A program made the position numbers and the translations under genes. Source: Microthyrium microscopicum (lineage: Eukaryota). From it: a DNA stretch of 64,000 bases. The notes beneath the pieces were generated by a model. It worked only from the letters and a program-made list of their open reading frames with translations. It had not been told where the DNA came from and searched no databases. Where the stretch lies: NCBI GenBank assembly GCA_010405405.1, contig MU004243.1:1-64000 (forward strand), read 5' to 3'. Every line of letters begins with the position of its first letter. Position 1 is the stretch's first letter. This document shows, piece after piece, positions 1 to 48,733 of the stretch.

Positions 1-3000
1 GTATTACTATTAGAAACTCTATCTATATAGAAAGGAGAAGTAATAATAAGAGTATTAAGTAAATTAGAAGCTATAGCTACTATAATAAAAATATTATTAT
101 TAAAGCCTAGTACCTATTAAGATTCTATAGCCTTAAGCTCTTAGATTAATTTATAATCTATATAGTTAAAACTATTAAGTTAAAGCTAATTTTTAAAGGC
201 CTAAAGAAATTAATATATATATTCTAGCATAGATAAATACTAACTAGGCTAAGTATTTAAGATAAGGTTAATAAAATAGTTAGTTCTATAATAAGTATAA
301 AGAGTAGTAAATAACTTAATCCTATTTAATTTTATAACTCTACTATATATAGATAATAAACTTAGTTACTATATAAGATTAGCTATAAATAATTACGTAG
401 ACTCTATTATATTAGTAGTATTATAACTATTAGACTCTTACATTAATATATAACTTATAGTAAAGAATAGTCTAGAAGGTAAGTACTAAAAAAAAGGCTT
501 ATAACCTTAAGAGTTAGTAATAAAGTAAGTATAATAACTAATAAAATCTAAAGATAAGAAAGAAGGTAATTTAGGTTTAGCTATATTAACTATTATTAGG
601 ACTTATATAAATAAAGAAGATAGCATTAGTATATCTAAGACTATAAAAAAATATAAAAAATATATTTAACTATATTTATACTTACGCCTATACTTAATAT
701 AAGCTTATAAGTAATTATATCTTTACTAGCGCTAATAATAGTTAAGCTTTATTACTTTAGTAAGTAATATTTTATAGTCTAATAGTAGTTAACTACTAAA
801 AATATTATAAAGTATTTATAAAGAGAAATAAGTAGAATTATCTTTAGGCTTAATAAAGGTTAGCTAAATTATACTAATAATATATTAAGTACTTATATAC
901 CTAGATTAACGTCTTAAGGCTTTATTACATAAAGCATAATAATAAAGATTCTAAATAATTATAAGAATTTAGGTCTTATTAAAAGTATTACTCTTTAAAA
1001 TATTTACTTTTATAAAACAAGCTAGAGGCCTATCTAATATTATATAAAAAACTAATTAACTAAGGAAGCTTAATTTAGGTAGTAGAGGAAATAGAACTTA
1101 TAATCTTAAAGAAGAATAAACAAAGAAAGTAATACTTAGAAAAGAGAAGAAAAAGAAGAAGAAGAAAAAGAAGAAGAGAAGTTATTTTATAAATAATAGC
1201 GCGCTACCTATAAAGAAGTAAAAACTTAATACTATTAATGCTATTATTATTTACTAATATAGAAATAATACTAATTAAGTAAGCCTTCCTATATAGAACG
1301 TATTTAACGTACTAACTATATAGTTAGCTAATTAGATAAACTATAACTATATAATATATACTTTAGGAATAAGATAACTACTACTATTACTTAATATAGT
1401 AAGATCTTATTTAAGACTAAAAATATAGAATAATATCTCTAGCTTCTAATACTAAACGTATTAAACGTTTAAACTATATAGAGTACTTAGAAATAAATTC
1501 TAGGTAAGAGAATAATACTAGATATATAACTTCTAGACTACTTTAATATAAAAACTATAACTATAAAAAGTATAAGATTAATACTATAGCTAATTAAATA
1601 TATAGGTTTACTATATCTAAACGTATATAACTCTATAATAAACGTATAATTATAAAACTACTTAATATTTATATTATATCTATAAGTAGGATATTATTTA
1701 TAAAATACTTAGAATAACTATAAACGTTAAATAATATAATTAGAACTATTAATAATAATACTAGTATAAGTATAATTAGGAATATTATATTTCCCTTTAG
1801 AGTTATTATAAATTATAATTAAGTAATGCTATAATATAAAGACTTCTTTACTTAATAATAATATAAAACTAACTATTTTTTATATTATATTTTTAATATT
1901 ACTACTATATAATATGCCTTAAGTTAATAGGTCTAATTAGTAAATACTTATATTATTAAAATTATATTAAATATTCCTCTTCTTTTTAATTATAGTACTA
2001 CTACTTTATAAATTTCTAATAAGGTAAGAGATAATTCTAAATCTTTATAGTAATAGTTTTCTACTATATACTTCTCTACTTACTTCTTATAGGCTCTATA
2101 GGAGTACTTAGTAATAAGAGTAAATTTAAAGATTAACTATTAGACTAGGCTTAAACTATACGTCTTTAAGTAGTAAGCTATAGCTACTTATTAAGACTAG
2201 TAGATATAGCTTACTACTTATTAGAACTACCTATAAGATTATTAAGGGCTATTTTTACTTACTTACGTTTTAAGCCTATATAAGATAGCTTTAATATTAA
2301 GGAGGACTATATACTTAGTAATAGATAGCTATTTAACGCTCTTAATAGTAGAGAATTGCTATATATATTATTAGGTTAAGAATAAGATATAATCTAAGAT
2401 ATATTATTATAAAGGGTTAAGAATTAAAGACTAGGAATAGTCTTAAGTAGAGATATAATTAGTTTATAGATATAAAAAGAGCTAGGCTTCTAAGTAGATA
2501 GTTTATAAAACGTATTTTCTATAAAGAGAAATATAGCTTATATTAAGTTATCTAGTAAATTAATTAAGTTTAATATTAGTAGTATATTATTATATAAATA
2601 GCTAAATATTGTATTTATATTATTAAACTATAATTTTAGTAGCTTATCTAAGGACGAAGTTCCTAGTAAGACGTTCTTAGTAGGACTATTTTTCTTAGTC
2701 TATTTATTCTTAGTATTTTAGTCTTATAGCTTATACTAAGTATTATATTTAATAGTACTAGTAAAATAAGTAAGCAACCTATTAGAATATATTATAGCGT
2801 TAAGCTAAGTAGAAAGACCTAGTACTAGTTTATATAATTTGTTCTATATAGCATTAGATAAATATAACTAACGTAGTTTATTTTAATGCTATCTAATTGG
2901 ATTTAGATTATTAATAACGTTACTATAGTTAGCTAATATAGCCTTAGTAATATTTACCTAAAGTTAACTTAATTTCTATAATAGAGAGGAAGGAATTAAC

Positions 3001-6000
3001 TAGTTATTATAAAACGAAAATATCTAATTAATTAACTAATAATAGGACTCTATACGTTATTAAGCCTAGAATAATAAATAATCTATAGTAAATCTAGCGT
3101 AGGTCTTTACTATTAGCATCTTAATACTTAGCTTAAGGTCTTATATATTAAGTAGTTAGTTAAATAATTTAGGTTAGTATCTATTATAATAATAGTAAAG
3201 AACGCGCATTATAGAACTATTAGTCTTCTTTATATTCTATAGATATACTATAAATACTACATAGTAATAATACTAACTATTATGTTTAAAACTATTTACT
3301 ATTATTAACTATTTAGCATTATTAGAATCTAAATAATATTATTATTCTATTTTTATCTAGTATTTCTAACTATTTAGAGCCTTCTTAAGAGATCTTACCT
3401 TAGATAGACTAGCTATAAGCGTTTTAGTTAGACTACTAATAAGCGTAGTTAAGTCTACTATCTAGATATAATAATCCCTAATAGGACTAATACTAATAGT
3501 AGACTTATTTCCTAATACTTTTAGTCTATTCTACTTATAAAGCTTTTAGTAATCTAGTAGTAAAATTAATAGAGAATATTTAGTAAGTTTCTTAGAAATA
3601 ATTTATTTACTATATAGATTACTAACTAAGTTAGCCTTATTAATATTCTCTTAAGCAAACTAAGGATAATAAAGACTAATAGTATTAAATAACTAGTATA
3701 GAAGAAAGATATAGTAGATATTTTATATATTATCTTAGTTATTTCTACTAGCGTAACTAAGACGTTACTAAATATTACTAAGCTTATTACTAATTAGAAT
3801 ACTCTACGTTATAATACGTTTAATATTAGTAATATTTATATCTATACCTAAAGCTATAGTTATAAATATAATATAAATTATTAAGTCTTCTTTTTTAAAT
3901 TTATTAAATTAAGCTTCTTAATCCTCCTTAGACATCTCTTTATAGTAATATTAAAGTATAGTAATAACACTTATAGAGGTCTATTTAGGACTATTAGTAT
4001 ATACTTAGTTATAGAAGGTTATATAGTTATTAAGCTATCTTTACTATTATTAAAGTAGATATATATATAAATAATTAGTAGTATCTTAGATCTTATTAGT
4101 ACTATTAAGAAATACTATAGTTTTAGGTATTTTTTAAGGAGTAGGTACCCTATTAGTATTAAATACGTTATTTAATAAGTACTCTAGGCTATTATAAGAG
4201 TTAGTTTTACTAAAAGATATTACTTTAACTTAAAGCCTAATATTAAGGCAGTTAAGATTAGTATAAATAAAATAAGTATAAGCTTTATTTATACTAATAG
4301 GCCTAAAACTAGTAGAAATAAGTAAAGTACTCTTAGCTTCTTTACTAAGTATTTTAGTATAACTAAACTATATAAGACTTTAAGGAAATAGGCTATAAAG
4401 CTAGTAAAACTAAGTATAGAATCTATAGAACTCTATTCTCTATTTATATACTAAATAATACTTATTTATAGTAAGAAGACTTATCTAATATTATACTCTA
4501 AAGTCTATTAATATATTCTAAACTAAATTATAAGTTAACTATTCTAAGGAAAGTAATAAGTAAGTAATCTATTTGCCTTCCTTAGTGCTCTAAAGTCTTT
4601 AGATAATAGATTTTTTATTATAGAGTATTATACTTTAATTAAGAATTTAGGCCTTAGTTTATAGAATAATATTAATATTTTTTACTTATTACTTACTAAG
4701 CGTAGTAAAAGGAATAACTTAGATTATAACCTTACTAGTTAATAATATATAATACTAGAAAATAATACTTTTCTTATACTTAGTCTAAGTAATTAGAATA
4801 ATATCTTATTATTAGAATATAAGGTAATAAAGAGCTTTAACCTAACCTAGATAAGGAGTATAATTACTACTATTACAAGTATCTAATATTACTTTTAGAT
4901 ATGAACTAATAGCCTAATACTATTAAATACTATCTAGAGTATAAAAATAGTTTATAATCTAGAGTATTAATACTAATAATATCTCTTTAGATAAATCTTT
5001 AAAGATCTCTATTTAGTAGCTATAGCTATAATAAGACATAATAATTCTAGAGATATTATTATACTTACCTCTATTATTACTATTAACTATAATAAGTAAT
5101 TTAAATACTTCTATTTATTTCTTTATCTTATCTTTTAATAAGTAACTATAAGGACGCTATAGGACTAAGACTATAAGTAGTAAGTTATTTCTAGACTTAT
5201 TATTACGTAAATAGCTACCTTAGGAACCTTTTAACTTAGTAGCTTTTATAGCTTATCTTAGTATTATAGCAATATAAAGATCTTATAAATAAACTTACTT
5301 CTATCCTTAATTACTATATTAGCTAACGTAATAATAGTATTATTAATAGCTAAGTAAAATAATATAGAGAATTTGTATTAAATAATTCTTTATAAATTTG
5401 CTATATATATAATATAGTTAGTAAAGTAAGTACTATACTAATAGATCTTACTATATAGTAGATATAGTTAGTAAAGTAAGTACTACGCTAATAGATTCTA
5501 CTATATAATTAGTATAGTTAGTATAGTTAGTATAGTTAATAATATTAATAAATCTTACTATATAGTTAGTATAATTAATATAGTTAATTATGCCTATAGA
5601 CCTTACTATACGTTTATTATAATTAACTAAGGCTAGTATCTTACCTATACTAGATAATAATAAAGAATATATAGAGATAAGTTAATTATACTTTATACTT
5701 ATAAGGATATATTAAGAGAAGTTTAAAACTAGTATTAAGTTAAAGATATACTTTAAGATATTATAACTTATAAAATAATAGATATATAATATAAATATTA
5801 GGGGCCTAGTTTAAACTAGTATTAAAGAAGGGTTATAAAAGGTTTAAGTTTTTATATATTTATTTTATATACTAGAAGTAATACTCTATCTAATAATATA
5901 TTTTATAAGAAGAAGAGATATATAGTAATAGAATTTTAGGGAGTAGGTAAATTATAGAATTATAAGTATTAACTTAGTTTTAAGGAGGTTAATAATACTA

Positions 6001-6288
6001 TTTATTAAGAGAGTTATAAGCGATAATACTATTTAAAACGTAGTTTATTTAAAAGCTACTAACTTACTATATTTTCTATAGTAATTTAAAGTAATACCTA
6101 ATAGTAATAGTAGAGATAAAGATAGTTAAACGTTATAAGAAGAAATGTTATAAGCGTTTATACTAATAAATTCTATAATCTAATCCTAGACTATTAGATT
6201 ACGGTTTAGGAGGGTGGTAGTTACTAATAATATACTTACCTAATTTGGGTCGTCCATGCGATCCAATTAGTCTGGGTCTCTGAGATAA
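1..6288. mobile_element. RIP-degenerated AT-rich element, one end visible (continues left of the window)
   Basis: CpA/TpG are depleted and TpA enriched, and no ORFs survive. There is an abrupt switch to normal composition near 6240-6290. The block ends in CTGAGATAA (6280-6288), identical to the terminus of the 32298-62922 element. Confidence 0.8.
5413..5600. repeat. Local tandem repeats (~50-bp unit x2 plus TATAGTTAG-like repeats)
   Basis: TATAGTTAGTAAAGTAAGTACTA(T/C)(A/G)CTAATAGAT occurs at about 5413 and 5463, followed by repeated TAGTATAGT. Confidence 0.6.
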
Positions 6289-6352
6289 CCCTTCTACGCG
6301 CCGCGTCTTTTCGCAGTTCTTGCAACGAACCTTTTAAACAATCAATACTGAA

Positions 6353-9545: not shown

Positions 9546-11651
9546 ATGTGGCAGGAAAGGCGCCCTTCCACGCAATCACCATCGCCGCGAACTGCCTCTC
9601 CGCTCCCTCGCCGTCCAACCTTAAACACTGGGTCCCAATCTGCGCGACCGGGCGCACTACCACGATCGTCTTCTTTATCACTGGTCTCATCTCCATCCAC
9701 GTCCACCACAAACCTGGGATTGACTCTTAGACATGCGAATGGATCCACCCTGCGACACGAACTCCGCGCAGAGCCAAGCTTCAATACGCCGGATCCACTG
9801 CAGGTGTTAGAAAGCATATTAGGCGGGAAGCTTGCCAATGGACAGGCTAGTGATGCGCGAGGTCGGGAGCTTGGAGATGACGAGCTACAGGATCTGGACG
9901 ACATCAATTGGGAAGGCTTGAGTTTAGAGCAATTTGCTAGTGAACGAGGGCCCGAAATGCAGAATGGCACTTCGAATAAACCGGCATTTGATCCTGCGGA
10001 ATGTATGAATCTTGTCTTGAGTTCAGCTCAATGGTCTTAACTCACAGCGCATAGGGGACAGGGAGAAGACTAGATTCGAAGAACTTCATAAATCTATCAA
10101 GGTATTTGGGTACCAATTCCAGGCTCGGCGATCGGAAGCTGATCCGTGTTGTAGGCATGCGACCAAGTCCTTAAATCTGTGGAGACATATCTCGTGGGCT
10201 TCCAGGCTGACCTTGGGGCCGTTTCCACGGAAATCGAAACATTACAGTCTCGGTCTACTTCACTAAACTCCAAATTGGAAAGACGACGGGTGGTAGAGAA
10301 GCTTCTTGGACCATCAGTTGAGGAATTGGGACTCTCTCCAGAAGTTGTTCGAAGCATTGTGGATGGGCCAATTGACGACAGCTGGATTTATGCCTTGGCT
10401 GAATTGGATAAAAGATGTAAAGCGGTCAAAGCCAAATCGAAAGAGCAAAAGCAAATGAAAGCGCTAGAGGACCTGGAACCTCTTCTGGAAAACCTCACCA
10501 ACAAAGTAAGGAAACGGACGCAATATTATTACTGCAACTGACAATATTAGGCCGTTTCGCGAATACGTGATTACATTGTTGCCCAAATCAAAGCCTTGCG
10601 ATCTCCAAACATGAATGCTCAGGTCATCCAACAACAAGGCTTCCTGCGATTCAAGGACTTGTATACTTTTCTGGCATCCCATCAACCACAATTGGGAAGC
10701 GAAATATGTCAGGCCTATGTAAATACCATGAGATGGTATTATCTCAGCCAATTCACCCGTTACGAGGCAGCCTTACGGCAAATCAAACTCCACACAATTG
10801 ATAAAACAGATTTAATAGGATCTGCTGATGATCCAACTGTGCGTCGAGCAAAAGGACCACCAGCAGCGCACGATGCGTTTTCAATAGGACGACGCATGGA
10901 TGTCATCAAGACTACGTCTTCGTCGGCCATTGCATCACATGTAGCCGAAGAAGATAAATCATCACATTACCTGGAAGTCGTATTCAGATCCTTTAATGTT
11001 GCAATTGTTGACAACGCATCCTTTGAATACACTTTTCTCAGTTCCTTCTTTTCTCCCGCCCAAAACTTTCACACCATCCGAAGAACCTTCGACTCTATAT
11101 TCACACCCACATTCAAACTCGGACAGGAGCTTACCAAGTCGTTGGTTGAAAACAGTGCAGATGCTATTGGTATCTTGCTCTGTGTCCGGCTGAATCAACA
11201 ATTTGCCTTCGATTTTCAAAAGCGCAAAGTCCCACCTGGAGAAGGCTATATCAACGCAACAAGCATGCTGCTATGGCCACGATTCCAGATTATCATGGAC
11301 CTCCATTGCGAGTCTCTACGAAAGCTTTCAGCAACAGCGCAGTCAACAGCACCTCATCCTATAACGCAACGCTTTGCAAGCTTTCTTCAGGCCATTCTGA
11401 AGCTGAGCAGTGAGACTGGTGATGACGAGCCAGTGTCTCGCAGTTTGGGACGATTGAGTACAGACTATGAGTCACTCATAACCAAGCTTAGCAAATCGAT
11501 AGGGGATACAAGGAAAAGAGAGCGGTTTCTTTCCAATAATTACAGCCTTATAGTGACTATATTGGAAGAGGGGAGTGGGAAACTGGCTGATGAAAATAGG
11601 CAGCATTTCTTGGAGTTGCGAAAGGCTTATGGCGATTCTGCAGTAAAATAG
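9546..11651 (+). CDS. VPS52: GARP complex subunit Vps52 (Sac2 family)
   Basis: Multi-exon gene with the family-typical segments LVGFQADLGAVSTEIETLQSRS, LRSPNMNAQVIQQ, AYVNTMRWYYLSQF, LLWPRFQIIMDLHCES and FLSNNYSLIVTIL. Confidence 0.92.
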
Positions 11652-31261: not shown

Positions 31262-32297
31262 ATTGATGCAAGTGGTTTATGTCGGTATGTAGCTTCAGCC
31301 TCGTTCAGCCTTGCCCTGCAGCTGCAATTAGCTGTACATGCAATAGCAAGGATACCACATACCAGATTTGGCTAGGTTAGATAAGTCGGTATAAGTCAGC
31401 ATTGGGTTTACCAATATGCTATTACTCATTGAGAGATGATATGGAAATGTATAAAATGCCATATTCCAGAAAAGTAAATATCCTGTTCAAATAAGGAGCA
31501 AAAGTTGAATTGTGCCCATATTCACCTCGTATACTTGCAGACACTATCCAAAACTTTCTTGACATATTTTGAAACATCTTCATAGAAATGGATTCCTTGC
31601 CAGAAGACTACTTTGTGACTAGCATGCAGTTTACAAAGCATGTTTACCGCGACACTTACCCATCAATTGATCCAACCTCGCCAGCCTTATCACAGAAAGG
31701 TAAAGTGATCATCATTACTGGTGCAAGCAGAGGGCTTGGAGCAAGGGTATGCCCCCTTACACGTCCGATCTTCCTTCGATTGATAGTGATTAACGATCCA
31801 TAGGCTTTTGTCCCATCATTTGCCAAAGCAGGCGCCAAAGCTATTGTACTTGTGGCACGAGATCCTGAACGCCTGAAGACCGCTGAAGCAGAGTTCAAGT
31901 CCAGCTATCCGAACACACATTTCTTGAGCATTTCCTGTGACGTTTCCGACGAGGAGTCGGTGAAGCACCTCTTTGCAAAGGTGGAAGAGGCATTTGGACA
32001 TGCTAATGTGCTCGTCAACAACGCTGGTGTGCTACAAACTGGTGGCAATGTCAAGGATGTTGAGGGAGCAGCTTGGTGGAAAGAAATGGTAAGTTCAACA
32101 GCCTCTGCCACTCCATCAAAGTCGCTAATAAAAAATAATAGACTCTGAACTCTTACGGCAACTTCCTCGTCACTCAATACTTCCTCAAATCGACGCCAGC
32201 GGACGCCAAAAGTACAATCATCAGCCTCACCACTGGCGCCGCACACCAAGTCTATCCTGGCTTGAGCGCATACGCGCTCTCCAAGCTCGTGGTCCTG

Positions 32298-32386
32298 TTA
32301 TCTCAGTTCTCAGACCCTAACCCTGCCCGTCCGCGGGCTCCCTCCGCAGGAGGGTCTAAGGCCAACTTGGACCTTTTTAGTGCGAC
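32298..32386 (+). repeat. Left degenerate terminal inverted repeat
   Basis: TTATCTCAG..CAGA..TCCGCGGGCT..GTCTAAGGCCAACTTGGACCTTTTTAGTGCGAC matches the reverse complement of 62837-62922 in blocks (9/9, 9/10, 25/33). Confidence 0.8.
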
Positions 32387-33470
32387 GCGCTTTATAGTTG
32401 TTAGTAAATGCCTATATTATTGTAACTATGTTCTTACTACTAATATATAAATATTTTTAATAATTCTACTATTATTATAATTATTATTTTTTCTTCTATT
32501 AATTCTATAAATTATACCTCCTATTAGAAGTACGCGTTATAGAGAAGAGTCTTATAAAAATAACCTAATTTCTATATAGGCTAGGTATATCTCTTTTTAG
32601 TAATAATAGTAGCAAAGGTAGATTTATCTCTATAATAATAAAGACTCTATATTTATATATCTTTAGTAATATAATAACTATAATAGATCCTATAAATACC
32701 TTAAGTAGGATTTAATATAAGCCTAATAATACTAAACTATTAAGTTATTTATAACTAGTAGTAATAATAATACTATAGTAAAGCCTAAACTTAGTTAAAT
32801 AAAAGCTTACTTTAATACTAAAATATATTTAAGATTAGAAGATAACTATAAAATTATTTCTTCTATTATAGGCTAGCTAAAAAGATACTTATAGCAATAT
32901 TATTCTTAATAGTAACCTATACGCTAACGTTACTACTTACTATAAGCTTTTAAAGAACGTTATAAAAGAGTTATTAAGTAATAAAATTTTGTTAGAGTAT
33001 TATATAAATTCTAAACTATAGGTAAAGTTTTATGCTCTTATAAAACTTATAAGCTTTAACTACTTTAGTAATAGAGTAAATAATATAAATATTAACTTTA
33101 AGAAAGCTATTAAGAAAATAAAAAATACTATACCTATTTAGATAGCTTTCCTTTATAAACTTATACGTAATTAAAACTATAAGATATATAAACAAAGTAA
33201 TAAGCTAGAATAGAAGCTTATATATATAATTATAATAATTATTCTTTATTAGTAAAGTAGAGAAATAAATAACTATTTAGTAGTAACGCTTAGAGTTTAT
33301 CTACTTAAGTTAAGTATAAAGAGATAGGTTATAGACTTACTAGTAGTTCTTAGAATATATACTAGTTATAAAACTATACTAAGGTATATAAAAAAAGTTT
33401 TAAAATAAGCCTTAGTATATAATAATACTATACTTAGTATTAAATATAAAATCTTACAAAATCTTTAAAT

Positions 33471-33550
33471 ATATTATAAGATCTTTATATATCTTATAAT
33501 ATCTTTATATATATTATAAGATCTTTATATATCTTATAATATCTTTAAAA
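33471..33550. repeat. 40-bp direct repeat x2
   Basis: ATATTATAAGATCTTTATATATCTTATAATATCTTTA at 33471 and 33511. Confidence 0.7.
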
Positions 33551-36500
33551 ATCTTAAGTTTATAACCTTAAAAGACTTTATATATTACTAACGCCTAATA
33601 TATAGAGAAATATTAAATAATATGTATTAAACTATTAAGCTATCCTATATTATAATAATATAAACTTTATATCTTATAAGTATAACGAGATAGTAAGTAA
33701 TACTATAAGTATAGTAGCTATTACTACTACTATTATTATAATCTATCTATCCTTATTTTTAAAAGGACTAATATAAGATATATACGATCTAATAAAGGAG
33801 TTTAACTAGAAATTAATATAAGAAAGCCTATTAGTAAAGGCTAATAGCTAAGGAGGTAAATATATTAAAACCATTAGCTAATACTTTATTATAAATACTT
33901 TAAAACGTAGTATTCTAGATATTATTAAACCTTAGATTATAAAGTATAAAAAAGATAAACACTAGCCTAGTATACTAAATATTAATATACTTATACTATA
34001 TAAGATAGAGTTTAATTAGCTTAGTACTATTATAGAGAATAAAGAAATAATAAATAGTACTTACTAAGTATATAATAAAATTTTCTTATAACATTTTAGC
34101 TTCTTAAAACCTTTAATTAATAATATAAGAGATATAGTCTTATTATTAAATATTATAGTGTCTATTCTATTCTCTTTACCTAATTCTAAACTAAATGCCT
34201 CTTTATTTAGTATAGTCTATTTATCTTCTAGCTAAATATATAGTAAAAGTTTATCTATCTATTATATCTTTAGCTAAGACGAATCTAATATAGATATATC
34301 TAAGAATATATTCCTATCTAGTAGTAGCCCTAAAGATAATAACTATAATAATAACTATAATAATAAGTAGATTAATATTAAAGATAATAATATAAGTAAG
34401 TTTAATAATAGTAAAATAGGAGAGGCGTCTAATAAAGAAAGTAGTATAGATATTAAGTCTATTAGTAATATAAGTACGTTTCCTAATCCTAGACGTAGTA
34501 TTCCTCTAGTAGATTCTATACTAGTATTATTATCTAGTATCTTAAGTATAGTTAGTAATAAAAACTCTACTAATAGTTTATAAGCGTTAGATCTAAGTAC
34601 TAAGATTTTTAGAAAGAGGCTATTTCTTACTTATAGTAATTAGTTAAGTATAAAGATTAACTACTCTATTAAAGCTAAGGCATTTAATAAAATATAACTA
34701 TATAATTTAAGGAAGTTCCTTTATCTAGTTCCTAGGTAATTCTATATATATATAAACTACTTTTTCTATATTATTTAAACCTATTAGGATTTCTCTAAGG
34801 TTAATATACTAGCTTTATATTCTATTATATATAACGTTAGTATATAGGGACAAAGCTATAAAAAGCGTAATAATGCCTAAATCTATTAGGTTATTCCTAT
34901 CTTAATATAAGGATTTAGTAGTAGAGTCTTAGCATTATTTTTATAGAGTCTAGACTAAAAAGGTTACTACCTTAAGTATATTAATAATTTATTCTTTACT
35001 ATTCTAAAACTACTTAAATCCTATATTAATAGGTTATCTATAGAATAGTTTAATAAGATTATTAAAAATATCTATTAAATAGCTTTTATAAGAAAAGTAT
35101 AAGATAAGCGCCTAAATAAGAATAATAATATTAAGTTCTAAATTATATACTAGTACTTATAAAAGATTAAGTTACTCTTAACTATATAATATACTCTTTA
35201 ATATAGTAATATTAGACTTTTATGCCTCCTAGTTAATTTTCTAACTATTTACTTTTATAGTACTAGTTAGAATAACTATAAAGATAAGATATTATAGCTT
35301 AAGTAGAACTTATCTAATATAAATACTCCTAAACTTTAAAGGTTTATCCTAGCCTTAAGCTTAGTTAACTAGGAAGGCTATAAGAACTTCTTTAAGCCTA
35401 TAGATTTAGGATTAGAGTATTTAAATAGTAACTATAGTAGAGATATAAAGTTATTTAATAACTTAACTTATAATATTAAAGTAATATTTAATAGAGTCTA
35501 CCTTTATAATATATATATATATTATTTATAAGATATATTTATATATATATTTATATGTAAGGCTAGTAATAAGTATACTAATACTAGTATAGAGTATAAT
35601 ATATTTTTATTATACTAGAATTTAATTAAAAATAGCCTTATAAAGTCTTAACCTTAGTTAGTAATTAAGAACTACGACTTATATTATAACTTACTAAATA
35701 TAAAGAGAATAGGACTTAATAAGCTTAATATTAAAGCTAAGTCTTTTAATTATAAAACTACTATTAAGTAAGATTATATAAGGAATAATATTATAACTAG
35801 GCTTATTAACATTCTTAACTAAGATATTAATAGTAATAACTTAGATATATAAGAAGAGGTTATAATAGAGGAGACTATAGATAATATATTATTTAATAAA
35901 GATAATCCTAGCGTATTTAAAGCTATAGAAGTTAATTTATAAATATATATTTATTTAAGGTTTCTACTTTAGTCGTAATTTATATAAGGTTAAAATTATA
36001 GTAAGATATAATAGAATCTTATCTATTATAATATAATCTAATTAATATTAGAAAATATTAGATAATATAAGATAATATTAGCTAATAGGATTACGCTATT
36101 TAATTTAGCCTTACTAATAAATACTTTCTTATTTCTATAATAGAATCATTTTAATAAATAACTCTAAGTACGTCTTAAATATAGAATAGTATATTAACCT
36201 TTATTATACGTTAAATATAGAAGAGTTTAGAGTTACTATAATCTTCTATTTAAGTATTAGTTATATCTATTTATTAGTTTAAGCTTATTCTAAGTTAGCT
36301 TAAAGTATAGAGATAAGAGTAATTTTACGCTACTAGGTAAACTACTATTATCTATATTAATAGTTTAAATTATTATCTTAGCCTTACTTATTATAATATA
36401 GGATTCTCTATAAGCCTACAAGGTAATATATAGAATAATAAATAATTATATTCTATCTCGTATTAGTTCTATAATATTTTAAGTTTTATCTAAGGATAGT

Positions 36501-37149
36501 TAGTAATTAAGGTTCTCTTACTATAAATAAAGTAGTAGCCTCTTTTAGCTTTAATATAGCTTTATCTTAGAAAGAAGTTAGTATATTATCTAATAAAGTT
36601 ATAGTATAGTAAAATATACTATATATGCGTCTAAAGTAGCAAGGAAATTAATAGACGTATAGGCTAGTTCTAAGGAGGTAGTTCCTAACTTTCTACTCTA
36701 TTATTAGCTATAACATTTAATATAATAAGGATATTAATATTAATATAGGTTAGTAGAGTATAGTAGGAGGTTTATTAACTATTTAGTCTAGTAGTAGTTA
36801 TAACTACTACTAAGTAATAGTAAACGTCTTAGAGAGTTTTTAAAGGAAAAGGAAGAAGAAGAAGAAGTAATATATATCTATAAATAGTAATAATATATTA
36901 TACTCTCTATAGTCTAATAAGCTTTTAGAGTTTAGTAATCTTATTAAGAAGTATATACTTATTACTATATTTAGGACCTCTAAGACTTATAATAAGTAGA
37001 TTTGCTTCATTTGCTCTAGTAATATTATAAGTATAGTTAAATTGCTCTCTCTATTTATTAGATTATTTTAAAGTACTTCTATTACTTCTTCTATATAATC
37101 TACTAAGTAATTACATAGTAAGTATTAATAGTACTATATATTACGCCTT

Positions 37150-37410
37150 ATGCTAGCTATTAATGCTAACTTAGTAGAATTAATTACTTAAGTATTAAAG
37201 TTATTAATTTATAAGTAGATAGTATAATTAGCGCGCTATACTAGTTATTAATACTAATTCTATTAAGTTAATTAGCTATATATTAGCTTTATTATAAGGT
37301 AGGTAAATAGTATAGCTAGCACGCTATAATAATTATTAATGCTAGTTTTATAGGGTTAATTAGCTATATCTTAACTTTATTATAAAGTAAGTAAAGAGTA
37401 TAATTAGGTA
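37150..37410. repeat. Degenerate tandem array, ~88-bp unit, ~3 copies
   Basis: CGCTATA at 37234 and 37322. TTAATTAGCTATA at 37268 and 37356. Confidence 0.6.
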
Positions 37411-40104
37411 TCTTTAGTTTTATTAATTATTAAAGTTATTCTACTAGCCTCTATATTAGTTCTTTTAACTTCTTACTATATAAATATTTAGTAAGAAGCT
37501 ATAGTAGCTAGAAGTAGCAAGAAGAGTGCTATTAGAGAAATAAATATAGTAAAGTTTAAGAGTATTCTAAGCATTATCTAAGAAGAAAAGAGAATAGGTA
37601 AGAAGAGTAATATAAGTAAAGTAAATAGAAAGTTATAACTAAATAATATACTTACTAGCTTACTTATTCTTTTCTTTTAGTAAGATCTTTACCTTCCTAA
37701 TATTTAGGTACTATATATTAGTATAACCTAGACTATAACTACTAATTACCCTATATATTGCTCCTAACTTAGTAGTAGTTCTCTCTAATTACTAAAGAGT
37801 TATTAGTAATATTTATATATATATATATATATATTACTAAGGGAGGAAGCTATAGTAGTATATAGGCAGATAGTAGAGTAGATCTAGTAAGCCTATTAAA
37901 CGTTAGACATTTACTTCTTACTAAGGTCGTTATTAAAGTAAAATACTAGCTAGCTCTTTTAAGTATTACTATCTCTAAATAACTAATAGGTAGTTTTAAG
38001 GTTTATTATTTTTTATAATAGATAAACCTAGAAGGTATATATACTAATTAAGGCACCTATTTAAAGATTACCTACGTAATAAGGTAATAACTCTAAAACT
38101 TTACTAAAGTAAAGGTTAATAAGCATACTATTTATATATATTTATATTAATTAGTAAGAAAGACTATACCTAGGTCTAATTATAAGTATTAATATAAATA
38201 ATTATAATAAGAAATAAAGAAAATCTTACTAAAGTAGATTTTAATAAGTATACTATTTATATATTTATAATTAATTAGTAAGAAAGAGTATATATATATC
38301 TAAATCTAGGCTATTAATATAACTATTTATATTAATTAATAAATAAGGAAGGAAACTAACTAGTAAATATCTATATAGATTTAAACTCTAGTAATACTAG
38401 ATTTAGTAGCTATAGCTTATATACTACTTCGTAGTATAATATAAGTAAGGAATTAGGAAGGGTTTAATAACTATAGTTTCCTCTATATCTAATAGAATAT
38501 TTATAAGTTATAAGGTTATAGTATTGCTAGCTACTTTAGTTACTATAATTACTAGGGAATTAGGTAGTATATACCTACTATAGAAAGAAAGAGAAAATAT
38601 AGTAATTTATATATTCTCTTATACTACTANNNNNNNNNNNNNNNNNNNNNNNNNNNNNNNNNNNNNNNNNNNNNNNNNNNNNNNNNNNNNNNNNNNNNNN
38701 NNNNNNNNNNNNNNNNNNNNNNNNNNNNNNNNNNNNNNNNNNNNNNNNNNNNNNNNNNNNNNNNNNNNNNNNNNNNNNNNNNNNNNNNNNNNNNNNNNNN
38801 NNNNNNNNNNNNNNNNNNNNNNNNNNNNNNNNNNNNNNNNNNNNNNNNNNNNNNNNNNNNNNNNNNNNNNNNNNNNNNNNNNNNNNNNNNNNNNNNNNNN
38901 NNNNNNNNNNNNNNNNNNNNNNNNNNNNNNNNNNNNNNNNNNNNNNNNNNNNNNNNNNNNNNNNNNNNNNNNNNNNNNNNNNNNNNNNNNNNNNNNNNNN
39001 NNNNNNNNNNNNNNNNNNNNNNNNNNNNNNNNNNNNNNNNNNNNNNNNNNNNNNNNNNNNNNNNNNNNNNNNNNNNNNNNNNNNNNNNNNNNNNNNNNNN
39101 NNNNNNNNNNNNNNNNNNNNNNNNNNNNNNNNNNNNNNNNNNNNTTATAAATAATTTTAATATATAGTATAATATATAGATAAGGAGAAGACTAATACTA
39201 AAGTAATAGAGGTTATAAAGAAGTATAGAATAAATATAAGTTATAATATAAATACATAATAGGTACCTAAGATTTAAGTAAGTACTTAACAAGATTATAT
39301 AATAAAGACTTTATACGTAATTTAGGTTTATCTTACCTAATAGAAAATATACTCTTTAGGAAACTATTTCTTAGCGTCTAGAATAAATAGGAATTATAAT
39401 TATAAGTTATTAGTAAGTATAAGTTATTAGTAATTATAGATTATTATTATTAGTAGACTATTAGTTAGTTAGGTTAGTAGTAAGATTAGTTTTATTTTTA
39501 TCTAATATAATATAATCTAATATTAGAACTTATTAGAAGATCTTAGCTAATAGAATACTAGGAATAGTTCTTTACCTTAGTAGTATATAATATAGAAATT
39601 TTAACTTACTTTCTTATAAAGTTTACTATAAAATATTAACTTAACTAAGGTAGGACTACCTAATAATAACTAGAATAAGTATAAATAAGTATAAGCTAGT
39701 AAATAATTTAGTACGTATAATATTAGAGATTTTATTATAATTATTTTATATATAGCTATCTAAGGCTTAGAGTTAGTAAAGAATAATAAAGTAATAAGAG
39801 AGATTCTAACTTATAGTTAAAGTATTAGAGCTATTCCTTAATTTATGCTTAACTTATTATTATACTAGAAAAGAATATATTATTAAGCTAGTGCTAAATA
39901 TAGATATATATCTTATAGCTATATATTCTTCCTTAGGTTTTAGTTTTAAGCTTATTTATATAAGCTAAATAAGTTATAAATACTTATATATTACTTAGTT
40001 ATTATAATATTTAGGTTTACTATACTTCTAGCCTATTAATCTTATCCTAGTAATTAATTATTATATAACTAGCGTAGCTTATTAAAATAATTAAGACTAA
40101 TATT

Positions 40105-41100
40105 TAATACACTAGCTCTAGTAGTTAAATATTATATAGCTTACAAAGTTAGTATACTTAGCTAAGCTAAGAATAGTTTACTTTAAGCCTATTATTCTTA
40201 TTCTAGTAGTAGAAGATTATAAGCTTATAAAGTTAATATACTTAGCTAGGCTAAGAATAGTTTACTCTAAGCTTATTATTCTTACTCTAGTAGTAAAAAG
40301 TTATAAGCTTATAAAGTTAGTATACTTAGCTAAGCTAGAAATAATTTATTCTAAGCTTATTATTCTTACTCTAGTAGTAAAAAGTTATAAGCTTATAAAG
40401 TTAGTATACTTAGCTAAGCTAGAAATAGTTTATTCTAAGCTTATTATTCTTACTCTAGTAGTAGAAGGCTATATAGCTAGTAAAGCTACTATAGTTAAGT
40501 AAGTAGCTAGTATAATAGTAATAATTTATTCTAAGCCTATTACTCTTACTTTAGTAGTTAATTTACTATATTACTAGTAAAGCTATTATAGTTAGCTAAG
40601 TAGCTAGCATAATAGCTATAATTTATTCTAAGCCTATTACTTTTATTCTAGTAGTTAAATATTATATTACTAGCAAAGCTTTAATAAATAGCTATTATAT
40701 TAAAGCACTATAGCTATAGTTTATTCTAAGCTTATTACTTTTACTCTAGTAGTTAAATATTACGTTACTAGTAAAGCCTTAATAAATAGCTATTACGTTA
40801 AAGTACTATAGTTATAGTTTATTCTAAGCCTATTACTCTTACTCTAGTAGTTAAACGTTACGTTACTAGTAAAGCCTTAATAAATAGCTATTATGTTAAA
40901 GTACTATAGCTATAATTATTTTAGGTTTATCTATTAAGGCTCTAGTAGTTAAACGTTATATTACTAGTAAAGCCTTAATAAATAGTTATTATATTAAAGT
41001 ATTATAGCTATAGTTATTCTAAGTCTATCTATTAAGGCTCTAGTAGTTAAATGTTATATTACTAGTAAAGCCTTAATAAATAGCTATTATATTAAAGCAC
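40105..41100. repeat. Tandem array: 84-bp units then 96-98-bp units sharing a core
   Basis: AAAGTT at 40145, 40229, 40313 and 40397 (period 84). GTAGT at 40458, 40554, 40651, 40749, 40847, 40945 and 41043. Core TTTATTCTAAGC(C/T)TATTA(C/T)TCTTACTCTAGTAGT. Confidence 0.85.
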
Positions 41101-43462
41101 GTTATAAAGCTATTAGAAGGAGTAAATATAGTAAGTTTATACTAGTTATTAATTAGTAAGAATATATTAGCTATTACTATACTACTAGGAATAAAGGCCT
41201 AATATATTATTAGTTATAAACTAAGATAGTTAACTAAGGAGATACTACTTATATAAAGACTTCTAATTACTTAAAGCTTATAATTAGATAAGTTATAGTA
41301 GAGTTAGAAGTAATATAGAATTAGTATCTTTCTTTTATAGAAAAAGGTTAGAACTTTAATATTAGAAATAATGTCTAAAGTAGTCTATAAGGATTATCTT
41401 ATATAGTAACTCTTAAGTTTAAAGGCATCCTATTAGTCTATATCTTTAAATATCTTTTAATATCTTATTAGAATATAAAAGATTTATAATTAAATAGTAA
41501 TAACTTTCTTAGACTATACTTTTCTAACTTCTTAATATAAGTTAGATATATTAATCTTTACTACTCTAATTATTAGTGCCTTATCTAAATATAGTATACT
41601 ATATCTAAGTAACTCTAAGTCTCTTATTTAGACCTTAGTTATTATAATAGATTAAGGTATTAGGACTAGAGTCTACTAGATTATATTAAGTAGATATAAC
41701 TTTAATTAGTCTATATATTATTATTACTTTTAGTAGAGATATAGCTATGTCTAAGTAAAGACTAAGATATTTCTTAATAGAGTAGTAGATAATATATTTA
41801 AACTTTTAAGGTTTAAAAGGCTAAATTATTAGAAGTAATATTAAAGCCTAGCCTAACTCTATATCTAATAGAAGGAAGCTAATAAATTATATATATTTAA
41901 CTACTTAGTCTTTTTAATATTTAATTTCTTTTACTTCTTTTTCTTTAATATATGTCTATATAGAATATTAGTAGAAGAGTTAATAAATAATTAATATACT
42001 TTACTAAATACTTCTATATTATAAGATAAGTTATCTTTATATCTTTTAGCCTTAATATTAAGCTTTATACCCTCTTTAACCTATTATAATAAGTTTAAAG
42101 ACGTACTAGAGGGTAGTATATTAATTTATTATAATAATCTAGCATAGAGCATATATATTTACTAAGTAATTTATTTAAGTAGCATTTAAGCTTTAATACC
42201 TCCTTTAAGTACTATAAGAAACTCCTTAGAACTTAATTATAATATAGTCCTTCTATAAAAGCTTCTACTAAGTCTTAGAATAAGATCTATTAATAAGCTT
42301 AAAAGGTTATTAATAGAGGCTACGAGCTTATTAAGAATTTAACTAGGTATTAGTATAGCGATTAAATTTAATAAGCTTATAAGAAAATATTAGTGCAAGC
42401 TACTTATTATTTTATCTTATAAATACTAAGGGTAGTCTCTATTAGTTATATTATTTTAGTATTAGAACTAAGGACTTATAGAGCATTTTAAGGATATCTC
42501 TATACCTTAATCTATACGTAGGTACTATAAATAGTATTATATTCTAGACGCTATAATTCTAAGACTTTATCTATATATAAAGTACTTACTACGTTATAAT
42601 ACTATTAGCTATAGTTTTAAAAATAGCTACGCTAAAAAGGCTAGCGTCTAAAAACTAATTCTATAATAGATTACAAAATTTCTTCCTATAAACTAATAAT
42701 AATAAATATATCTTTAATTATTATTAGCTAAGTTAAGAGATATACTATAGTATATATACTTTACTTTACTATATTTAGAATTATTAAGGAAGAAAGGATA
42801 AGTATACTATTAGTTATTACTTAGTTTATAGCATATAAGATTAAATAGGGCTTTAATAGGTATACTATAGTAATTAAATTTAACTATAAAGATTTTATCT
42901 TTAGCTATTAAGCTATAAGTAGTACTAGTTTAGTATAGAGACTTAATATTTCTAAGTTTCTAGATTATAATAAAGTTAGTATATAGAAAGACTATATTTA
43001 ATATATTAGAAGGATAATACTTATATTAAACTCTAAACCTTAAATATTATAATATTAATATCTATTCTTAAAGAACTAGAGCTTACTAGTTTTATAAGAT
43101 AGTGCTATAATCTTATATTAAAGAATACTTAAATAAAAAGATATAGCTTTTAGGAATTCTATATTATAGTTTAATATAAAGAAAATATAGAGATAGATTT
43201 AGTATATAAGTATTTAACTATATAAGTAATTTAAAATATAAATTTTTAGAATAGAAAGAAATATAGCTAATAAAAGGGCTAGTAAATAGTAATATAATTA
43301 ACTACGTAATCTACTATTATAACTCTAAGGAATAAGGATATTTAGAAAGAAATAAATAATACGTACTACTAAGCTACTTACTATATTACTTAGACTTTAA
43401 TAAAGATATACCTTTAAATATAGCGCTAAAGAAAAAGATAGTTTTATTATTATTAGATATTT

Positions 43463-43990
43463 TACTATATTTCTTAATAGACTATAATAAGGAAGTATTT
43501 AGTAGTAATACTATAAAAAATAAGTATAAGTAAAAATAGGTAGTATACTATATTTCTTAATAGTTTATAATAAGGAAGTATTTAGTAGTAGTACTAAGAA
43601 AAATAAGCATAAGTAAGAATAAGTAGTATACTATATCTCTTAATAATCTATAATAAGGAAATATTTAGTAGCAATACTAAGAAAAATAAGTATAAGTAAG
43701 AATAGATAATATACTATATCTCTTAATATTTAAGAATAGAAAGATATTTAGTAGTAATCTAAAGAAAAAATAAGTATAAGTTATAATATATAATATATAG
43801 TATCTCTTAATATTTAAAAGTAAGAAGATATTTAGTAGTAATTTAAAGAAAAAATAAGTATAAGTTATAGTATATAATATATAGTATCTCTTAATATTTA
43901 AAAGTAAGAAGATATTTAGTAGCGGTCTAAAGGAAAAATAAGTATAAGTTATAGTATATAATATATAGTATTTCTTAATAGTTAATAAGT
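43463..43990. repeat. Tandem array, 83-84-bp unit, ~6 copies
   Basis: ATTTAGTAG at 43497, 43580, 43663, 43746, 43830 and 43914. Confidence 0.85.
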
Positions 43991-44129
43991 TAGTAATAAT
44001 TTATAATAGGTACTAAGAAATAGAAAATATATATATTATTAGCTACTAAAGCTTTATTTAAAGTAATCTTTACTACGCTAGAGAGTATATATCTATAGTT
44101 AATATATTAATTTACTATTAAGTATTAAG

Positions 44130-45035
44130 AAGGTTTTAGTAATAGTATTTAGAAAGAAGATATAGTCTTATATTATATAAATAATACTATTAGAAGAACG
44201 CTAGTAAGTAGACTTTTAGTAGTAATCTTTAGAAAGTAAGATATATTCTTATATTATATAAATAATACTATTAGAAGAAAGCTAGTAAGTAGACTTTTAG
44301 TAGTAGTTTTTAGGAAGCAAGATATAGTCTTATATTATATAAATAATACTATTAGAAGAACGCTAGTAAGTAGACTTTTAGTAGTAATCTTTAGAGAGTA
44401 AGATATAGTCTTATATTATATAAATAATATTATTAGAAGAAGGCTAGTAAGCAGACTTTTAGTAGCAATCTTTAGGAAGTAAGATATATTCTTATATTAT
44501 ATAAATAATACTATTAGAAGAAGGCTAGTAAGTAGATATTTAGTAATAGTCTTTAGAAAAGAATATAATAATATTTAGCATAGTAAATTATATTCTTAGA
44601 ATAAAGCTAGTAAGCAAATTTTAGTAATAGTCTTTAGGAAAGGATATAATAGTATTTAGCGTAGTANNNNNNNNNNNNNNNNNNNNNNNNNNNNNNNNNN
44701 NNNNNNNNNNNNNNNNNNNNNNNNNNNNNNNNNNNNNNNNNNNNNNNNNNNNNNNNNNNNNNNNNNNNNNNNNNNNNNNNNNNNNNNNNNNNNNNNNNNN
44801 NNNNNNNNNNNNNNNNNNNNNNNNNNNNNNNNNNNNNNNNNNNNNNNNNNNNNNNNNNNNNNNNNNNNNNNGTTTTTAGTAATAGTCTTTAGGGAGAAAT
44901 ATATAATATTTAGCGCGCAAATTATATTCTTAGAATAAAGCTAGTAAGTAGATTTTTAGTAATAGTCTTTAGGGAGGAATATATAGTATTTAGTATATAA
45001 ATTATACTCTTAGAATAAAGCTAGTAAGTAGACTT
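44130..45035. repeat. Tandem array, 80-82-bp unit, spanning an assembly gap
   Basis: GCTAGTAAG at 44200, 44281, 44362, 44443, 44524, 44606, 44940 and 45020. Confidence 0.85.
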
Positions 45036-48000
45036 TAAGAAAGAGAATACTTATACTAAGTTAAAGATACTACTTAATAGCTAATATTATAATAAGACTT
45101 TTAAGTATATATAAGGCTTTAAAAAGGATTATATTATATACTTAAATCTAGTATACTAGTATATAATAAAATTAGCTTTACGACTTTACCTTTAGCTTTT
45201 AAGAAAACATTAGTACTATTTTATAATAGGTAAGAATATATATTATAATATAAATTAGTTATTACTTTAAACGTAGAAGATATTAATATTAGCTAGCTTT
45301 ATAAGATAAAGAATATAGGGATACTAATAGCTAGAGAGATTATAGTATAAATAATAAGAAAGTTATATATAAGCTATAGGTATAAGTAATACTAATTATG
45401 CTTAGTCTTAAACTATAGTTATTAAGGTAAATTATATTATAATAAAAAGTATAAATATTAAAGTTAGATATATTAATATAGAGTTAAAAAGACTTTAAAG
45501 TTATAATACGATATTAGGTATTATATACTAATAATTAAGTCTTACTAAGAGCTATTTAATTAGACTAATATCTTTATATAACTTAAAATATTATTTAAAA
45601 ACGTCCTATATTATTTAAAAGTAGTTAAGTATATCTTAGTTTGCTTATTTAGAGTAGAACCTTAAATCTAGCTTTGCTTAAATACTACTAGCTTTATAAT
45701 TTATTACTATACCTTTCGCCTTTATAATCTAGTTTTATTCTATAGATAATATATAAGTACTTAGAATTATCTTCTCTTTTATTATAAATATAATAATTAT
45801 AAAGTAAGGTTAATAATAAGCTTTAGAGTATATCTTTAAATATTAGGTTACCTATTAAGTTAAAGTAAGCTATTAATATACTAATAAGAATAATAGTACT
45901 ACTAGTTTCTAGTATAAGGCTCTAAGTAATTATAATTAAAGTAGATCTATAAAATAGTTTAATTTATAGACTAATATAAACTAGCTAGTATTTAGATATA
46001 TAACCTACTATTATCCTATTCTAAAAGAAAAAGATTTTAGAAATCTCTTTTTAACTTTATAATATTAACTTCTAAAAGCATTACTACTTAGTAGTAGTTT
46101 AAAATATTCTAATAGTAAGCTAGTAAGGAACTTTACTATATTATTAGATAGCTTATATTTATTACGTTATTTAAGATATAATCTATAGCTTAGCTCTATT
46201 ACTACTAGATATAGTTAGCTAAAATAAGAAATATTTAACTAGGATATAATCTACTAATATAGCTTATATACTACTATGCTAATTAAGCTCTATAGATTAA
46301 GATAAGATAAGCTAAAAATAAGGATTACCTAATCTAAATTTATAAACGTAATATAGTTAGTTATAGATTACCTATCCTATTTATAGTTAAGAAGCATATT
46401 ATTACTTATACTCTAAAAGTATAAGTAAAGTTATAGAATTTAGTAATAGCTTATAGGTATATAAGCCTACTAGTAAGTAGCAATGTAGTATTAAAGATAA
46501 TAGAAATTCTCTAAGTCTAGTCTTAAAAGATTAAATAAAAATTATTATTTATCTATCTTTAAGTAAATAATATATATTCTATAGAAAATTATTATTATAA
46601 TTATTAGTTAAACTAAACCCTTTTAAATAGCTATATCTTAAGTTTCTACTCCTTTAATTACTATCTTATATTGCTTAGTCTTTTATAACTTCTATTTTTC
46701 CTTACTAGCAACAAGGTAAGTAATTTATTAAGATATAAATTTACTAAAGTCCTCCTTAGCCTTTCTAGTCTTTATAATATTAAGATATAGCTTAGACGCT
46801 AATTATTTATTATTTTTATAAAAGGAGTAAGTCTTATAATATCCTTTTATAATATAATTTATATAAGTACCTTTAAATAAAACGCTTCTATTCTTAACTT
46901 TTATAATTATATAAGTAGTATATACTAATATTAGTTCTTTACTATTCTTTATTTAGGATAAATTAAGACTTTAAATTTTAAAGCAACGCTAATAAGAGTA
47001 TTTAACTTAACCTATAGTAAAGCAATATATTATTATAGTATATAATAAAAATAGTATCTTAAGAATATTTATAAGCTAAGGAGTAAAATATTTATACTAT
47101 TATAGACCTTATACTAGTTAATATTTAAGAAGTATTTAAAGTATTATTAAATTAGTATTATTAAGAATCTATTTTTAAAGTAAGTAAAAGAGTAGTTATA
47201 TAACTTAGATATTAGTAGTTTTAGCGTAGTTATTAAAGATAAATACTTTTATATTACTAAATATATATTATTTCTCTAAGAACTATAGAACTAGGACTTA
47301 AAGATTTACTTTTAGTATTAACTTCTTACTTATAGATAATTTAGAAGATAGTAATAGCTTCTTAACTATAACTTAAGTTAGAGAAGTTATTAGACTTTTA
47401 AGTAATATTATAATCTTTATATTATTTTACGATAAAGTTATAAAGCCTATATTAGTTATATTACTTTAAGTACTTTAATATATATATACTTAACTATAAG
47501 TAGCTTCCTCTATAATAGGTTTTAAGTTACTTACTTAGCGTTTTTAGTATACTTCTTTCTACTATTTTGCTATTTCTACTTTACTATTAGTTATATAATA
47601 TCTCTTTTACTAAATTTGCGAATTTCCTTTATAGGTACTATATAGAAACATTATATTATTATAGTAGCAAGTTACTATAATTACTAATAATTCTTTATAA
47701 TTTAAGGTTAGCTATACTTCTTCTCCTTTTAGAGAAGGAATAAATCTATATTTAAAACCTCTTTCTATTATAGTAGTATCCTCTTTACTATAAACTAGTA
47801 TTAATAAATAATTATAATTATAATAACTCTTATCCTTTTTAACTAATTATTTAATAGAAGTAGAAGCCTAGTTTCTATTACTTTATATAGATAACGTAGT
47901 AAGTTAATTTACTATTTTATTAATAGGAGTAACTATAGTTAGCTAGGCCTACTTAGGCTTTTAAGGAGTTTATAGTAATTATACTAATATTTCTTAATAA

Positions 48001-48733
48001 AGATATTTTTTACTATAAAATTAAGAATTAGTAGAAGGTAAAAATATTTATAATAATTAGATTAGAGTAGTTTAATAGCTTACTAAACATACTTAGTTTA
48101 GATTTATAGACTACTTAATTAGAGTAGCTTATTAGGTAGATTTTAGTAATAAGGATTTATCTAAGTTTAGAGTAATTAGGTCTTTAGTAGAGTTTCTAGA
48201 TATTTTTAGTATACTTAAAGTAATTATAATATACTTAATATTAAAGCTTATAAATATACGCTTTAGAGCTATTATTATAAGTTTTAGTAGAAGAAATTAT
48301 ATTTTATAGTTATTTAAAGTATTCTTTAGATATAAGAGTATAAAGAAGAAAAAGAAGTAAAGAAGTTAATAAATTAAGAGATTAAATAGACTATAACTAT
48401 AGGCTCCTACTATTAAGCTTAAAACTACTCTATTATAAAAGGTTACTACTTTGCTTAATTATTAAAGCTTTAGCCTTTAAGGCTTTAGAGCTTTAAAGCG
48501 CTTAGCTAGTCTAGTCTTCCCTTACTATATATAGATATATTTTATAATTATTACTATCTTACCTACTCTATTAGTAAATTACTAACTACTATATTATAAT
48601 AGGTATATCCTAAAGGAATAAAGATGCCTAACTATATAGTTAATATTTAATAGTATTCTAGGTAGCTAGTACTAATAACGTTTAAGCCTTTCTAGATTAT
48701 ATAGTTTTAATTTTATAAGTACTATAACTATTA

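Follow-up and report, generated by a model that had tools for sequence, protein, structure and literature searches.

The stretch of DNA analysed here, 64,000 nucleotides long and hereafter called the window, alternates between AT-rich blocks, at 1-6288 and 32298-62922, with a GC content of about 21%, and stretches with about 47%, and the question that it raises is what the AT-rich block that breaks off at 6288 is and whether it belongs with the larger one to its right. The AT blocks bear the signature left by repeat-induced point mutation (RIP), with a TpA/ApT ratio of 1.65 and a (CpA+TpG)/(ApC+GpT) ratio of 0.08-0.09 against 0.45-0.69 and 1.34-1.58 in the GC blocks, and this signature ends about 50-95 bp before each terminus. 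The initial annotation had proposed that block 1-6288 is a different subfamily that uses the same end-recognition motif as the other block. We consider it highly probable that block 1-6288 represents the right-hand portion of a class II (cut-and-paste) transposon inactivated by RIP, a member of a two-gene family that many fungal-like contigs contain. In kind this is an ordinary RIP-killed DNA transposon, but the family is a poorly described one.

The first evidence comes from the ends themselves. As had been claimed, the AT block stops at a 9-mer, CTGAGATAA at 6280-6288, that lies on the composition switch, GC in 50-bp steps rising from about 0.2 to 0.36-0.5 within 6200-6300, and the flank that follows reads CCCTTCTA. 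The three ends read inward as TTATCTCAG-AGACC-CAGAC (6288, end A), TTATCTCAG-TTCT-CAGAC (32298, end B) and TTATCTCAG-CCAAT-CAGAT (62922, end C), in agreement with the readings given earlier. Counting both strands, the 9-mer occurs four times in the window (shuffle mean 0.78; 0 of 100 shuffles reach four), and three of these occurrences sit at the three AT/GC switches, all pointing inward. The chance that a 9-mer in the correct direction falls within 100 bp of one given boundary is estimated at about 6e-4, for which the shuffles supply a rate of 0.39 per strand and 64 kb. The fourth occurrence lies in the Vps52 gene, where TTATCTCAGCCAAT at 10739-10752 has 14 bases in common with the right end of the 30.6-kb element; since these bases are read as WYYLSQF in a conserved frame, the likeness is taken as chance. 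Beyond about 19 bp end A is unlike B and C, as had also been noted: past the first 9 bp the observed scores are reached by 488 and by 432 of 500 shuffles. The CAGA(C) word of end A is therefore without significance of its own inside the window, and gains its meaning only from the family-wide comparison below. No further RIP-mutated copies of the three ends were found in the window, and RY space, which is blind to transitions, shows no extra family ends inside either block. To the right of 6288 a protein-kinase gene (Pkinase, E 1e-10; 6354-7480) appears to start after about 65 bp, with the block-1 element just upstream of it.

Table 1. Features of the two AT-rich blocks in the window and complete family elements in metagenome contigs
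Feature	Position or length	Strand	Evidence or remark
Second family member (probable), RIP-mutated right-hand part, running off the left window edge	1..6288	-	GC 0.21; TpA/ApT 1.65; (CpA+TpG)/(ApC+GpT) 0.08
RIP-degraded DEAD/Helicase_C helicase relic, reading inward from the 6288 end	3681..4913	-	profile i-Evalue 5.1e-47; tblastn E 1e-11
Subterminal stretch spared by RIP	6236..6279	-	GC about 0.4-0.5; holds CCAGAC, counterpart of the family's second word YAGAC
Terminal 9-mer of the block 1-6288 element (TTATCTCAG inward), right-hand (helicase-side) end	6280..6288	-	first 8 bases as in 20 of 22 family ends
Flank CCCTTCTA, predicted copy of the 8-bp target-site duplication	6289..6296		partner copy expected left of the window
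Fourth TTATCTCAG, outside any element	10739..10747	+	within Vps52_C coding frame
Left copy of 8-bp target-site duplication TGGTCCTG	32290..32297		
Left terminal inverted repeat, without RIP	32298..32386	+	61 of 91 columns identical to right arm, score reached by 0 of 500 shuffles; 5 contigs with unlike flanks stop at 32298
Dead DUF6589 (predicted DDE transposase) gene, interrupted at 33415-33605 (191 bp, intron or insertion)	32514..35939	+	Pfam PF20231 E 3e-9; family profile E 3.4e-83
Central region of 23 kb with tandem arrays and two masked N runs	35940..58913		recurs at other places in the same sample
Dead helicase gene (DEAD + Helicase_C), pointing towards the transposase gene	58914..62162	-	P0129 aligns full-length; profile E 3.7e-49
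Right terminal inverted repeat	62837..62922	-	
Right copy of 8-bp target-site duplication TGGTCCTG	62923..62930		
Complete element L019	8610 bp		duplication CATAAGGT, 8/8; 9 and 10 bp give only 2-3 matches
Complete element L038	8268 bp		duplication 6/8, both differences transitions
Complete element L027	7662 bp		duplication 5/8
Complete element L004	9560 bp		duplication 1/8

The block at 32298-62922 was taken as the reference because it is whole: it has imperfect inverted ends of about 90 bp and a perfect 8-bp duplication and measures 30,625 bp. When the element and one duplicate are removed the frame of a short-chain dehydrogenase becomes continuous, …YALSKLVVL running on into QLTAFVAAENPNV… (also written QLTAFVAAENPNVAAFALHPG…). 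Since the duplication is perfect and the dehydrogenase frame runs across the junction, the block is a single insertion. The left half of the split gene corresponds to adh_short positions 107-155 with an E of 0.0015, which is weak and below Pfam's cut-off, and the right half gives a weak Pfam match with an E of 0.16. The two halves (31900-32297 and 62923-63230) are cut at the YxxxK region, and both are still open and free of RIP mutation.

Inside the element a DUF6589 gene, which in the family codes for about 1000 aa, reads inward from the left end, and a DEAD/Helicase_C (DExH) helicase gene, for about 900-1100 aa, reads inward from the right end on the other strand. The 191-bp stretch that interrupts the DUF6589 gene shifts its frame relative to its intact counterpart, P0002, and carries a palindromic 10/20/40-bp tandem repeat (33445-33556). 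Between the two genes lie tandem arrays at 40116-41100 (period about 84/98 bp) and 43463-45036 (81-84 bp), the second of which borders a masked N run; the N runs inside the element are at 38630-39144 (515 bases) and 44667-44871 (205 bases). Pfam searches with stop-bridged translations gave no match in 44872-53900 on both strands or in one frame of 53700-57200, and a word-based protein search with the scanned frame of 53700-57200 gave none either. Scans of stop density separated coding from non-coding frames poorly. The element is three to four times the size of its four complete relatives (7.7-9.6 kb).

Intact counterparts of both genes were found. A phmmer search with the stop-bridged transposase translation returned 124 relatives at E<=1e-3, the best being P0002 (1062 aa, E 7.5e-219), a hypothetical protein of Microthyrium microscopicum in the public protein collection, and the helicase counterpart, P0129 (1083 aa, DEAD + Helicase_C), is recorded under the same source name. 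P0002 covers two segments of the plus strand, 32665-33414 and 33606-35939, and in the longer one all 778 of 778 codons can be reached from it if nothing but C>T and G>A changes are allowed, against 181 of 771 for a shifted control. P0129 aligns without gaps and over its whole length to 62162-58914 on the minus strand, with 1060 of 1083 codons reachable by RIP (193 of 1076 in a shifted control). P0002 and P0129 each come from a contig with a recorded length of 2,506,003 bases, and this agreement suggests one un-mutated element alongside copies heavily mutated by RIP, an odd situation if RIP acts on every copy. These intact sister genes of the 30.6-kb element are a good candidate for probing what a transposon-encoded helicase does.

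The sequencing data tell of further copies. Four sequencing runs contain the region, all from one sample that is probably the source of the window assembly, and they are therefore no independent support. Contigs placed on 32000-51999 at 80% likeness cover 30 of 30 bins, and almost all of their differences are transitions: run X1 has 1373 of A>G, 884 of T>C, 431 of C>T and 407 of G>A, and at most 29 of any one transversion type. Five contigs stop precisely at the left terminus, 32298, and their flanks are unlike (agreement 0.53). All eight interior loose ends (39261-51761) carry the un-mutated counterpart of the window sequence, with 29-30 of 30 bases consistent with RIP, and at least this part of the 23-kb centre therefore belongs to a repeated unit that has a little-mutated copy. 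Three contigs of the same sample track the left end for 80 bases and diverge at 32377/32378 into related but different sequence, a hint of another subfamily or of a deletion derivative.

DUF6589 is a Pfam family without an assigned function, and the function that we propose for it is that of a DDE transposase. In an alignment of 40 DUF6589 relatives of at least 500 aa the residues YDN, GDQ (D629), W655, FH663-664, D884, E888 and N891 are kept, and at least 90% of the sequences conserve D629, D884 and E888; at a significant level all 40 match PF20231 alone. The AlphaFold models (P0002, pLDDT 73; the shorter P0003, pLDDT 87 and pTM 0.88) are predicted to have the strand and helix order of RNase H, with the D of YDN on strand 1, D629 right after strand 4, a large all-helical insertion after D629, and D884/E888 on a later helix. 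The putative catalytic acidic residues were assigned from this conservation and from the predicted secondary structure. In an exhaustive structure search the best 30 of 50 matches were all retroviral or retrotransposon integrases or DDE transposases: the HTLV-2 integrase core scored Z 9.8 (133 residues aligned), the P element Z 9.0 (286), Hermes Z 8.9-9.4 (270-304) and RAG1 about Z 5, a Z of about 9 being only moderately above the background of 7-8 stated for the tool. Foldseek against the PDB returned nothing at E<=0.001, a sequence-profile search of the PDB with DUF6589 gave no meaningful match, and the ESM Atlas gave no usable match for the DUF6589 protein. It is the predicted fold, the conserved acidic residues and the transposon context taken together that argue for a DDE transposase.

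The same arrangement is found well outside the window. A scan of metagenome contigs gave 45 loci that encode DUF6589 relatives, and in 16 of them a second ORF with DEAD and Helicase_C domains lies downstream and convergent, on the opposite strand in all 16. GFGKS and DE(C/V)H are present in six of the eight helicases from which a profile was built. The ORFs of the 45 loci match the window at the transposase and helicase relics only. The family elements have imperfect terminal inverted repeats that start with TTATCTCA(G/T), and a few bases inward of it lies a second word, YAGAC. When TTATCTCA(G/T) followed within 12 bases by YAGAY was searched for 1000-2000 bp upstream of the transposase core, 12 of 18 testable loci had it in the forward direction (5 of 8 with the whole interval and 7 of 10 with a partial one) and the other 6 lacked it at the expected place; in the reverse direction the same intervals gave none, and shuffled intervals gave 46 in 1600. 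Altogether 22 ends are available, 3 from the window itself and 19 from 14 loci, and 20 of them begin with TTATCTCA. L021 and L031, one element at two different sites, have 300 identical terminal bases, diverge exactly at the terminus and are unrelated beyond it, and in four loci (L019, L004, L027 and L038) the terminal word is found at either end.

An 8-bp target-site duplication flanks family elements. This 8-bp rule stands behind the prediction that the far end of the block-1 element should read CCCTTCTA followed directly by TTATCTCAG. The duplication is perfect (8 of 8) both in the 30.6-kb element and in L019; a clean duplication is absent in two of the four complete metagenome elements, L027 and L004. 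In L027 a stretch of 133 bases outside the left end (L027:7-139) recurs inverted, in three tandem copies, at L027:3296-3573 downstream of the transposase, and the target of this element may have been a copy of itself. The enlarged centre is not unique to the window element because L005, which is at least 13.5 kb long, and L044, whose right end is at 21074 and whose transposase is at 10001, have one as well between the two convergent genes.

With the family in hand, block 1-6288 can be placed. The profile of eight metagenome helicases, run on the six-frame translation of the whole window, gave two strong matches, both on the minus strand, at 60543-62018 (E 3.7e-49) and 3681-4913 (E 5.1e-47), all others having an E of 3.4 or worse. 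The second of these, in block 1, aligns to profile positions 61-450 of 927, which by extrapolation puts the helicase start about 1.2 kb from the right end; the corresponding figures are about 0.76 kb for the 30.6-kb element and 0.4-1.2 kb for metagenome elements. Since a helicase relic lies at the expected place and in the expected direction, block 1 represents the helicase-side end of another, divergent member of the family. No DUF6589 or transposase relic was found in the visible block 1-6288 with the family profile, by mapping P0002 or with Pfam on the minus strand, and Pfam on stop-bridged translations of that strand gave no match at all. That the 9-mer at 6288 is a coincidence and the block an unrelated RIP-mutated repeat has a negligible probability in our judgement, for even though end A past its 9 bases is not significantly like B and C and one more TTATCTCAG in the window, at 10739, is clearly chance, the placement at the switch would be a rare accident by the above estimate, the family's helicase relic is where it should be, and end A fits the family-wide pattern TTATCTCAG…CAGAC.

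The two blocks are not copies of one another. By blastn they have only three short matches of 36-100 bp in common, and the transition-blind (RY) dot plot that the initial annotation had proposed shows 0 common 32-mers and 42 common 28-mers, a number equal to that of the reversed control. P0129, the intact helicase that matches the 30.6-kb block, fails to detect the block-1 relic, and the two relics of the window agree with each other at 92 of 289 comparable positions, which is no more than either does with the metagenome proteins. As they have no common DNA and P0129 misses the block-1 relic, the blocks represent separate lineages, the 30.6-kb block being a full member of one and block 1-6288 belonging to another. 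The proposal of a different subfamily with the same end-recognition motif is thus supported by the inward helicase relic, by the motif in distant metagenome relatives and by the absence of common DNA.

Two further readings of the blocks have to be weighed. Starships have a DUF3435 tyrosine recombinase, the 'captain', as the first gene at one end. That the blocks are giant elements of this kind, or of the KDZ/Zisupton kind, is very improbable: a size of 30.6 kb with a long interior of unassigned content would suit such elements, and so would the 8-bp duplication, which the cited texts give for Zisupton/Dileera and Cryptococcus KDZ1 (PMC12730594, PMC11588098) and likewise for hAT, but the end genes here code for a DUF6589 DDE protein on the left and a helicase on the right, with no tyrosine recombinase there, and the KDZ domain PF18758 and the CxC domain were absent in all 40 DUF6589 members even at E<=1. 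The second reading takes block 1 to be composite, the family member ending at 6288 with its left part truncated or abutting other RIP-mutated repeats, in which case the far boundary would not read CCCTTCTA followed by TTATCTCAG. We think this unlikely, though it deserves to be taken seriously. The visible part is 6.3 kb long and the transposase gene is not in it, half of the complete metagenome elements are without a clean duplication, and contigs of the sample show joints between distant places of the stretch; on the other side, the one full element of the window is intact from end to end, and the RY comparison gave no additional family ends within the blocks. The far AT/GC boundary of block 1 need not be the left end of the element, if other repeats abut it.

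Returning to the preferred reading, in which both blocks are members of one two-gene transposon family, what characterises class II TIR elements was found here: inverted repeats, a duplication of fixed length, a transposase with a predicted RNase-H fold and a conserved acidic triad, and copies at different sites. We propose that the DUF6589 DDE transposase would recognise the conserved terminal word, excise the element and join it to target DNA whose two strands are cut 8 bp apart, and that the helicase would be a conserved accessory protein of this predicted transposition system. Several copies would have arisen before RIP took their repeated interior to about 21% GC, and RIP would have spared the last 50-95 bp of each end and the single-copy flanks. 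It is probably because the termini and flanks were spared that the element ends coincide with sharp AT/GC switches. The sharp AT/GC borders in this genome are thus transposon ends combined with RIP, and such borders can be annotated to the base. What the locus yields is a conserved end defined to the base, a rule of 8-bp duplication and, for DUF6589, a proposed function as the transposase of a two-gene transposon with that end and that duplication.

How does this family compare with known systems? hAT elements have YARNG ends, and P elements make 8-bp duplications. The DUF6589 elements are like hAT (Hermes, 8edg) and the P element (Drosophila, 6p5a) in their 8-bp duplication and, in the models, in a predicted RNase-H core with a large helical insertion ahead of the catalytic E. 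The longest structural alignments are likewise those with hAT and P (270-357 residues, Z 8.3-9.4 against a tool background of 7-8), and DUF6589 has a conserved H after strand 5 at the place of the C/DxxH signature as that signature is described in PMC9587614. Unlike hAT, the DUF6589 elements have ends that read TTATCTCA and a conserved helicase partner gene, and no hAT or P Pfam family, the hAT transposase and dimerisation domains included, was matched in 40 of 40 DUF6589 members. Kolobok makes TTAA duplications, which do not fit the DUF6589 elements. KolobokH is presented in the cited text as a fungal DDE lineage with a RecQ-type helicase situated downstream of its transposase domain (PMC9587614), whereas the helicase of the DUF6589 elements is a separate gene on the opposite strand. 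The KDZ group (Kyakuja-Dileera-Zisupton), as exemplified by the account of KDZ1 in PMC11588098, resembles the DUF6589 elements as a large fungal TIR element with an 8-bp duplication and extra genes. In the cited texts KDZ, hAT and P are not described with a helicase, and the present family, which does not match their Pfam families, has one.

The explanation that survives best beside our own is that the family simply is AcademH, so that the window adds two more copies and nothing else new, and we hold the chances for and against it to be about equal. AcademH is, reportedly from the work of Kojima, the helicase-encoding lineage of the Academ superfamily, and it is said to have been described first from Puccinia. 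The only mention of DUF6589 that a full-text literature search returned, in the excerpt of a preprint, is of its enrichment in a rust fungus, which points the same way. The organisation fits as well: in the relevant passages of PMC10799480 and PMC10045372, AcademH elements consist of a transposase gene and a separate DEAD/Helicase_C helicase gene and occur at low copy number in fungi including Ascomycota. Against this, the duplications reported for AcademH are of 9 or 10 bp in the text cited (PMC10045372), and those of the window element and of L019 are of exactly 8 bp, 9 and 10 bp not fitting. A bolder possibility, which we put forward only tentatively and think improbable as a whole, is that the DUF6589 elements form a separate, undescribed fungal DDE superfamily that differs from AcademH as the latter is known from its description, with an 8-bp duplication, an invariant TTATCTCA and an obligatory convergent DExH helicase, in which the centre would have grown from about 1 kb to 23 kb to give a giant, possibly cargo-carrying element; an intact master copy with P0002 and P0129 may then still be able to move in this organism. 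Among described kinds AcademH is the closest, the likeness being one of gene organisation as the cited texts give it: both have a gene for a DDE-type transposase and a separate gene for a superfamily-2 helicase (DEAD, Helicase_C) between inverted ends, and both duplicate their target.
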